Source: Acidobacteriota bacterium (GTDB lineage Bacteria; Actinomycetota; AC-67). Taken from it: DNA of 64,000 bases. Positions within the stretch are counted from its first letter, which is position 1, and each line of letters begins with the position of its first letter. The notes beneath the pieces are model-generated. The model was given only the letters and a program-made list of their open reading frames with translations, was not told the DNA's origin and did no database searches. Location: contig JACQXY010000049.1 in the NCBI GenBank assembly GCA_016208485.1, positions 2,800 through 66,799 on the forward strand, read 5' to 3'. Position numbers and translations under genes: made by a program. Of this stretch, positions 24,748-24,896 are shown in pieces.

Positions 24748-24896
24748 CGCGGGAGTGTACCCGGGAACACCCTGCCGAGAAGCAAAGAGGGCGCCCGCGT
24801 AGGACGCCCTCGAGGCTTGCGCCGGGGAAGCTGCATAGCGAGGACGAGAGTGGGTTGACCTGATTGTCGGGAGTTACCCCGAAGGGTTTACTCCTT

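Follow-up and report, generated by a model that had tools for sequence, protein, structure and literature searches.

Is a 16S rRNA gene that has no 23S or 5S rRNA gene beside it a working transcription unit, or is it the trace of a faulty assembly, a decaying gene or an additional copy? We have addressed this question for one locus in a stretch of DNA of 64,000 nucleotides (the whole stretch is called the window below), in which the 16S gene on the minus strand is followed by the protein gene rmlC. Unlinked rRNA genes, defined as those separated by more than 1500 bp (Brewer et al., bioRxiv 10.1101/705046; ISME J 2020), have been recorded in 37 of 71 phyla; their phylogenetic signal is strong, and they account for 13-41% of the rRNA genes in soil samples (bioRxiv 10.1101/705046). 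We conclude that the locus is very probably a genuine stand-alone 16S transcription unit, and that this is the normal layout in an uncultured lineage of soil Actinomycetota.

The gene itself is complete. Its match to the bacterial SSU rRNA model of Rfam (RF00177, 1454.6 bits) starts at 26729 on the minus strand and covers model positions 1-1533, and the gene spans 26729 to 24897, interrupted by a group I intron of 287 nt from 25229 to 24943. The 3' terminus reads ...GGATCACCTCCTTTCT and the last base is 24897, which is where the earlier note had placed it on reading the same sequence. No LSU, 5S or other rRNA family was found in the 64-kb window with Rfam at gathering thresholds, a permissive Rfam search of the same 64 kb (E<=1, lax filters) returned no degraded remnants of 23S, 5S or tRNA genes, and ARAGORN counted 0 tRNA genes in it. 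The absence of a tRNA, 23S or 5S gene after the 16S gene, which had been claimed by eye, was confirmed by these searches. No 23S gene lies within at least 24.9 kb of the 16S gene on its downstream side or 37 kb on its upstream side, and by distance within the window the 16S gene lies well over the 1500 bp, measured from the 16S 3' end to the nearest 23S gene, that Brewer et al. used to define unlinked genes; the word here describes the distance to any 23S gene in 64 kb and not a sight of the partner's position. Where the canonical linked rrn layout has a spacer with or without tRNA genes and then a 23S gene on the same strand, the window has a terminator hairpin followed by a protein gene. The 23S and 5S genes would sit elsewhere, under a promoter of their own. 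The features of the locus on which the following paragraphs draw are collected in Table 1.

Table 1. Positions of the elements of the 16S unit, of rmlC and of the two synteny anchors, in window coordinates.
Feature	Position	Strand	Basis
thiI, upstream synteny anchor of the 16S gene	27385..28557	minus	PF02568, PF22025, PF02926
rrs promoter: -35 TTGCGC (26975-26970), 16-nt spacer, -10 TATACT (26953-26948)	26948..26975	minus	Sequence; conservation
Predicted transcribed 16S precursor leader, ~210 nt, putative 5' end	26730..26947	minus	Between conserved -10 box and Rfam 16S start
Leader strand of the stem: GCTTGCGCC (26875-26867), TTGAAAA, CTGCATAGCGAGGAC (26859-26845)	26845..26875	minus	Complementarity, conservation
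Additional leader segment GAGAGTGGG	26802-26794	minus	Pairs with trailer CCCACTCTC
16S rRNA exon 1	25230..26729	minus	Rfam RF00177; full-length 87-92% identity to relatives' 16S
ORF-less group I intron, 287 nt, starts AACCCAGUUGCGAC, ends ...CACGCG (terminal G)	24943..25229	minus	Rfam RF00028, 74.3 bits, model 1-253
16S rRNA exon 2 (AACAAGGUAGCC...GGAUCACCUCCUUUCU), anti-Shine-Dalgarno included	24897..24942	minus	98-100% identity to relatives
Trailer strand of the stem: CCCACTCTC (24854-24846), GTCCTCGCTATGCAG (24845-24831), GGCGCAAGC (24823-24815)	24815..24854	minus	Complement of the leader
Intrinsic-terminator-like hairpin GAGGGCGTCC-tacgc-GGGCGCCCTC, then TTTGCTTCT	24778..24811	minus	Sequence scan; conserved position
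-10-like box TACACT, 8 nt upstream of the rmlC GTG	24754..24759	minus	Conserved before orthologues
rmlC, dTDP-4-dehydrorhamnose 3,5-epimerase, 178 aa, GTG start	24209..24745	minus	PF00908, E 6.7e-44; N-terminus aligns with orthologues
metH, downstream synteny anchor	15108..18575	minus	Five Pfam MetH domains; synteny

If the locus is a unit of its own, it should have a beginning and an end. A promoter, TTGCGC-16-TATACT, had been proposed in the earlier note at 26948-26975. The position is right and the motif is conserved: of 17 related 16S leaders, 16 have TTGCnn-N15/16-TATACT, placed 88-109 nt before the leader box. A scan with the sigma-70 consensus did not call the rrs promoter because its -35 element is weak; we have kept it despite this result because of its conservation in the related leaders. 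Transcription from this conserved promoter would start a leader of ~210 nt. The leader proposed earlier stands, although its predicted length, counted from the likely transcription start, is ~210 rather than ~225 nt.

The precursor so delimited appears to carry its own processing signals. The most conserved segment of the leader, up to 97% identical in BLAST comparisons, is a box of which the part TTGAAAAC presumably resembles the boxA-type leader motifs of actinobacteria. Leader and trailer of the window share perfect complements of 15 + 9 + 9 nt and can pair over at least 24 bp into a processing stem; for a leader of 270 nt and a trailer of 150 nt, simple arithmetic gives a chance expectation of about 4e-5 perfect 15-mer complements. 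The duplex predicted by duplexfold for the window has a dG of -80 kcal/mol and a z of -3.45 relative to shuffled trailers, and across six genomes the corresponding energies are -76 to -81 kcal/mol (z -3.4 to -6.2 vs shuffled trailers). When the two helices were aligned in six sequences, standard pairs filled 93.7% of the cells, against 22-43% in registers slid by 1-3 columns. Four pairs had changed on both sides and the observed covariation score was reached by 1 of 500 shuffles, statistics which, coming from six sequences, are indicative and not conclusive. What these six sequences have in common is a long leader-trailer duplex maintained by covariation. The outer helix reads GCTTGCGCC/GGCGCAAGC in the window and TCTGTGCC/GGCACAGA in most relatives, and because both strands differ from those of the relatives, the trailer of the window belongs to the leader of the window. 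Leader and trailer would pair around the 16S RNA alone, forming a long duplex of the kind that is an RNase III substrate in other bacteria; its cleavage would release the pre-16S RNA.

The 3' side is just as compact. Between the 16S end and rmlC lie 151 nt (24896..24746), which contain, in this order, the 3' strand of the stem, a GC hairpin with a T-run and the TAnACT box of rmlC. The earlier note had seen an rmlC gene with a GTG start 148 nt past the 16S end; the gene and its start codon stand, whereas the spacer is 151 nt long and the start lies at 24745. This GTG (24745-24743) is homologous to the starts of the orthologues in two related loci, L004 and L025 (MAEV... start). The hairpin has 10 pairs, 8 of them GC, and is followed by TTTGCTTCT; an equivalent GC hairpin of 10-14 bp with a T-rich tail stands 3' of the stem in 12 of 12 related trailers, in each case at the same place although the stem sequences differ. 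A GC-rich hairpin, a T-run behind it and a conserved position together make this a predicted intrinsic terminator, at which transcription would stop ~85-120 nt beyond the 16S 3' end. The TACACT box begins 18 nt past the T-run, and 7 of 7 rmlC orthologue sequences, whose upstream DNA is otherwise unrelated, have TA(C/G/A)ACT 8-9 nt ahead of the start codon. It is likely, judging from this conservation, that the box is a near-leaderless actinobacterial promoter of rmlC, and rmlC would then be read from its own promoter, outside the rRNA unit. With a terminator in between and the conserved TAnACT box ahead of rmlC, we rejected co-transcription of 16S and rmlC as the main route.

Is this arrangement a peculiarity of one contig? 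The closest GTDB genomes are uncultured MAGs named 'Actinomycetota bacterium', whose ThiI proteins are at most 70% identical to that of the window and whose 16S genes, at 87-92% identity, would by commonly used thresholds correspond roughly to different genera within a family. To these were added eight JGI metagenome contigs retrieved by a pattern search combining the 16S end with the trailer box; most of the relatives are short-read MAG contigs, a kind of sequence that is error-prone at rRNA genes. Rfam found no LSU, 5S or tRNA gene downstream of the 16S gene in the 4.0 kb available for L004, 2.3 kb for L009, 6.8 kb for L015, 3.1 kb for L016, 6.7 kb for L024, 3.4 kb for L025, 2.3 kb for L026, 2.0 kb for L028 and 3.1 kb for L030, the last being part of a contig of 350 kb, and no LSU or 5S gene was found upstream of the relatives' 16S genes. 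On the upstream side, the order CvpA/trypsin - thiI - DUF1918 (opposite strand) - 16S is shared by the window and 15 related loci. On the downstream side, 16S...rmlC-metH recurs in six lineages, namely the window, L004, L015/L030, L024, L025 and L028, with rmlC-metH lying 1.7-3.1 kb past the 16S gene in all but the window. The unlinking of rrs from rrl and rrf, with a promoter and leader of its own, which the earlier note had proposed, is thus supported both by the window and by the independent assemblies of related organisms. One further contig, L022 (11167-16220), has a thiI homologue 64% identical to that of the window and no 16S gene downstream of it, and thiI-16S synteny is accordingly not universal; the site after thiI is presumably occupied there, going by the ORF sequences alone, by genes for a trypsin-like protease and a histidine kinase and by CheR/CheB-like genes.

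Could a collapsed or mis-joined rRNA repeat nevertheless have lost the ITS, 23S and 5S and brought the 16S end next to rmlC? The idea has some appeal, as assemblies notoriously go wrong at rRNA genes and the window departs from its relatives in two ways: the block of 1.7-3.1 kb between 16S and rmlC is absent from it, and between rmlC and metH, which are adjacent in the relatives, it has ~5.6 kb of additional DNA, part of it duplicated (18576-24208). However, the 151 nt after the 16S gene hold a trailer typical of the lineage and complementary to the window's own variant of the leader, followed by the conserved terminator, and any mis-join would therefore be confined to the 18 nt from the T-run to the -10 box of rmlC. 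Nor does a 23S gene follow the 16S gene in any relative, over the 2.0-6.8 kb examined. The content of the missing block, moreover, varies by lineage: in L004 it encodes a DnaJ-domain protein and a BNR-repeat protein, while in L015 and L024 it encodes an RsmC-type methyltransferase (PF05175 + PF08468), in L024 together with a DUF952 protein. Because the content between terminator and rmlC differs in this way between relatives, we regard the 16S-rmlC block as a natural indel hotspot. A break or mis-join just 3' of the 16S gene, which according to the earlier note would have undone its reading, is contradicted by the pairing of the trailer with its own leader and by the order that recurs in six lineages. 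From the recurrence of the unit and of 16S...rmlC-metH, with no 23S gene in the 2-7 kb downstream in the relatives, it follows that a mis-join is very unlikely, to the point that we give it hardly any weight, and that the unlinked 16S gene is, as far as sequences can tell, a trait of the lineage.

Some features of these neighbouring regions deserve mention in their own right. The methyltransferase genes of RsmC/RlmG type, which are rRNA methyltransferases, stand between the 16S terminator and rmlC at L015:14819-15829 (minus) and L024:3559-4638 (minus); no homologue was found in the 64-kb window. In the extra DNA between rmlC and metH, a direct repeat of 183 nt (22196-22378 vs 23237-23419, 98% identical) precedes each of two paralogous ORFs on the plus strand (22446-23225 and 23463-24152, ~82% identical, no Pfam match), and repeats and ORFs together are a tandem duplicated cassette. 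Closer to metH, two fragments duplicate the 5' end of that gene (20124-20477 vs 18087-18595, minus, 92-95% identical), and an element of ~80 nt upstream of metH is repeated ~2.7 kb away (~21335-21415 vs 18655-18735, minus), without a match to an Rfam family. A PIN-domain gene (20904-21299, plus) lies between the copies of the repeats of the metH region.

The intron has an RF00028 score of 74.3 bits against a gathering score of 50, and the introns of the relatives L011, L015, L024, L029 and L030 score 63.6-75.1 bits (L015 and L030 belong to the same lineage). The exon junction was fixed against intron-less genes, which read GAAGTCGT/AACAAGG at this place (the slash marks the junction; in intron-less relatives, GAAGTCGT/AACAAGGTAGCC), and the insertion point is, by our own count, presumably after U1498 in E. 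coli numbering. An insert after that U, ending in G, is present in the window, L011, L015/L030, L024 and L029. In the P1 helix, the end of the 5' exon, GUCGU, pairs with intron GCGAC and leaves a U.G wobble at the splice site, GUCGU/AACCCAGUUGCGAC, an arrangement invariant in 5 of 5 sequences, and in each of the five the last intron base before AACAAGG is a G. Among the predicted pairs of the intron, 23 of 82 show compensatory changes in a comparison of five species. With 287 nt, the intron is too short to hold a homing endonuclease gene. It would self-splice and restore the decoding-site sequence GUCGU/AACAAGG.

Does such an intron mean that this copy of the gene is silent? The insertion interrupts helix 44/45 beside A1492/A1493, and an unspliced product could not function; a decaying or silent 16S gene, disabled by an intron at the decoding centre, would fit these facts. 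Against this reading, the Rfam match is full length and untruncated, and the identity to the intron-less relatives is even, at 91-92%, while promoter, stem and terminator are all intact. The intron core in turn matches the whole RF00028 model and has accumulated compensatory changes across five species, and ligation of the exons would restore exactly the 16S sequence of the intron-less genes. We therefore consider a pseudogene here to be extremely improbable. The doubt expressed in the earlier note, whether the intron might point to a copy that is not expressed, is answered in the opposite direction by the conserved promoter, stem and terminator, the full-length 16S gene, the invariant P1 and the 23 of 82 compensatory pairs. 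On the same grounds, the conservation of promoter, stem, terminator and P1, a full-length 16S gene and covariation in the intron, we argue that the copy is probably expressed and matured, and that splicing probably makes the intron-bearing 16S RNA functional. Of the features of the locus, the intron is arguably the rarer, and it is separate from the unlinking.

In the relatives, introns at position 1498 occupy L011:14688-14954, L015:14025-14274, L024:2777-3020 and L029:4885-5129, and are missing from L004, L009, L016, L026, L027 and L032; their distribution within the clade is patchy. A second 16S insertion, of ~306 nt and after CAUGGCU (~E. coli 1060), is found at L011:13942-14247 and in L024 from 2445, and the window is without it. 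This insertion ends in G and carries a GTATAGTCC motif like that of the 1498 intron, and it had no Rfam match even at E<=0.1; a divergent group I intron is the probable explanation. In L024 (2445-2665), the 16S gene passes directly from the 5' portion of the ~1060 insertion to ~1390, so that ~330 nt are missing and the Rfam score is 1005 bits. Either mis-assembly or decay of this copy would account for the gap.

Could the organism also have an ordinary operon? In that case a linked 16S-23S-5S operon would exist elsewhere in the genome and the locus in the window would be one more, orphan copy of rrs, whether functional or not. A window of 64 kb does not reveal copy number, and such a mixed status has been reported for 0.62% of complete genomes (Brewer et al., bioRxiv 10.1101/705046). 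Short-read contigs bearing thiI, moreover, break just before the 16S gene, as if that gene were repeated or shared in the sample: two Logan contigs, L001 (SRR12113402) and L002 (SRR12113406), match the window exactly on the upstream side of the 16S gene and end 55 nt past thiI, the kind of break that assemblies typically show at rRNA genes. The SRR121134xx series also yielded 'Ca. Azoamicus agrarius', whose name hints at agricultural soil as the origin, although the environment is not given in the paper. However, such breaks arise in metagenomes at single-copy rRNA genes as well, because the conserved regions are shared between species. The window and 15 loci have all kept a 16S gene adjacent to thiI with its promoter, stem and terminator, as would be expected of a working copy. 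We consider an additional linked operon unlikely, and prefer the reading of a stand-alone unit that is the normal arrangement of its lineage.

What does this locus add? It is real and of a known kind of genome architecture, and it is not surprising, since earlier work has found unlinked rRNA genes to be common among soil bacteria. It records a genome-architecture trait, not an assembly error, for a poorly known lineage of soil actinobacteria. Amplicon methods that span 16S-ITS-23S will miss organisms with this unlinked layout, and primers placed on the last 45 nt of the 16S gene (e.g. of the 1492R type) will give products ~290 nt too long, or fail, in members that bear the intron. The binning of MAGs will often lose a stand-alone 16S gene. 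As a compact, fully delimited and independent rrs unit that keeps an RNase III-type stem, the locus may also be useful for asking how the output of 16S and 23S RNA is balanced in genomes that keep the two genes apart. We put forward tentatively, as a possibility in which we have less than even confidence, that a soil Actinomycetota clade of roughly family level is exclusively unlinked, with a single thiI-adjacent rrs and rrl-rrf elsewhere, and tolerates mobile ORF-less group I introns at 1498, in some members at ~1060 too. If this were true, unlinking and intron tolerance would occur together in a free-living, high-GC phylum with large genomes, which would suggest that both traits go together, perhaps via low rRNA copy number and slow growth and not via genome reduction.

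How does the locus compare with known systems? The clades named for unlinked genes include Deinococcus-Thermus (Thermaceae/Deinococcaceae), Chloroflexi (Dehalococcoidaceae), Planctomycetes, Euryarchaeota, Ca. Udaeobacter and Acidobacteria Subgroup 2, among others, and Actinobacteria are not among the phyla and clades named as rich in them (bioRxiv 10.1101/705046). In the literature searched we found no specific precedent for unlinked rRNA genes in Actinomycetota or their deep-branching classes, which is not proof of novelty. The locus resembles the cases of Brewer et al. in having a 16S gene more than 1500 bp from any 23S gene, a free-living soil host and a trait conserved in a clade, and differs from them in that the whole transcription unit, with promoter, stem and terminator, is defined. 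In the same work RNase III was less frequent in genomes with unlinked genes, and no bacterial RNase III gene was present in Deinococcus-Thermus (bioRxiv 10.1101/705046). The lineage of the window has nevertheless retained a long stem of RNase III type around its 16S RNA. As in the RNase III stems of the E. coli type, the leader of the window pairs with the region just 3' of the 16S gene, and a long duplex supported by covariation encloses the mature RNA. In a canonical rrn operon, however, the spacer between 16S and 23S provides the 3' strand, and transcription runs on into tRNA and 23S, whereas the stem of the type found in the window is followed within ~3-25 nt by a terminator hairpin. In Thermus thermophilus, rrs is transcribed apart from rrl-rrf. 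In both systems a high-GC, free-living bacterium has a 16S unit that stands by itself, with a promoter and an end of its own; the lineage of the window differs in having a long duplex typical of RNase III substrates, in belonging to another phylum and in carrying an intron in the gene.

For the intron, position 1498 has been described as an insertion site in the 16S genes of CPR bacteria, where the insertions encode LAGLIDADG_2 proteins (PMC11270868), and 16S introns are also known from giant sulfur bacteria (Salman et al. 2012, as cited in PMC11270868). The window and CPR/Patescibacteria have in common an intron of self-splicing type in a bacterial 16S gene, at site 1498, and unlinked rRNA genes, which are frequent in CPR. 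They differ in that the host here is a high-GC soil actinobacterium and the intron is ORF-less and 287 nt long, and the comparison between them is one of position.
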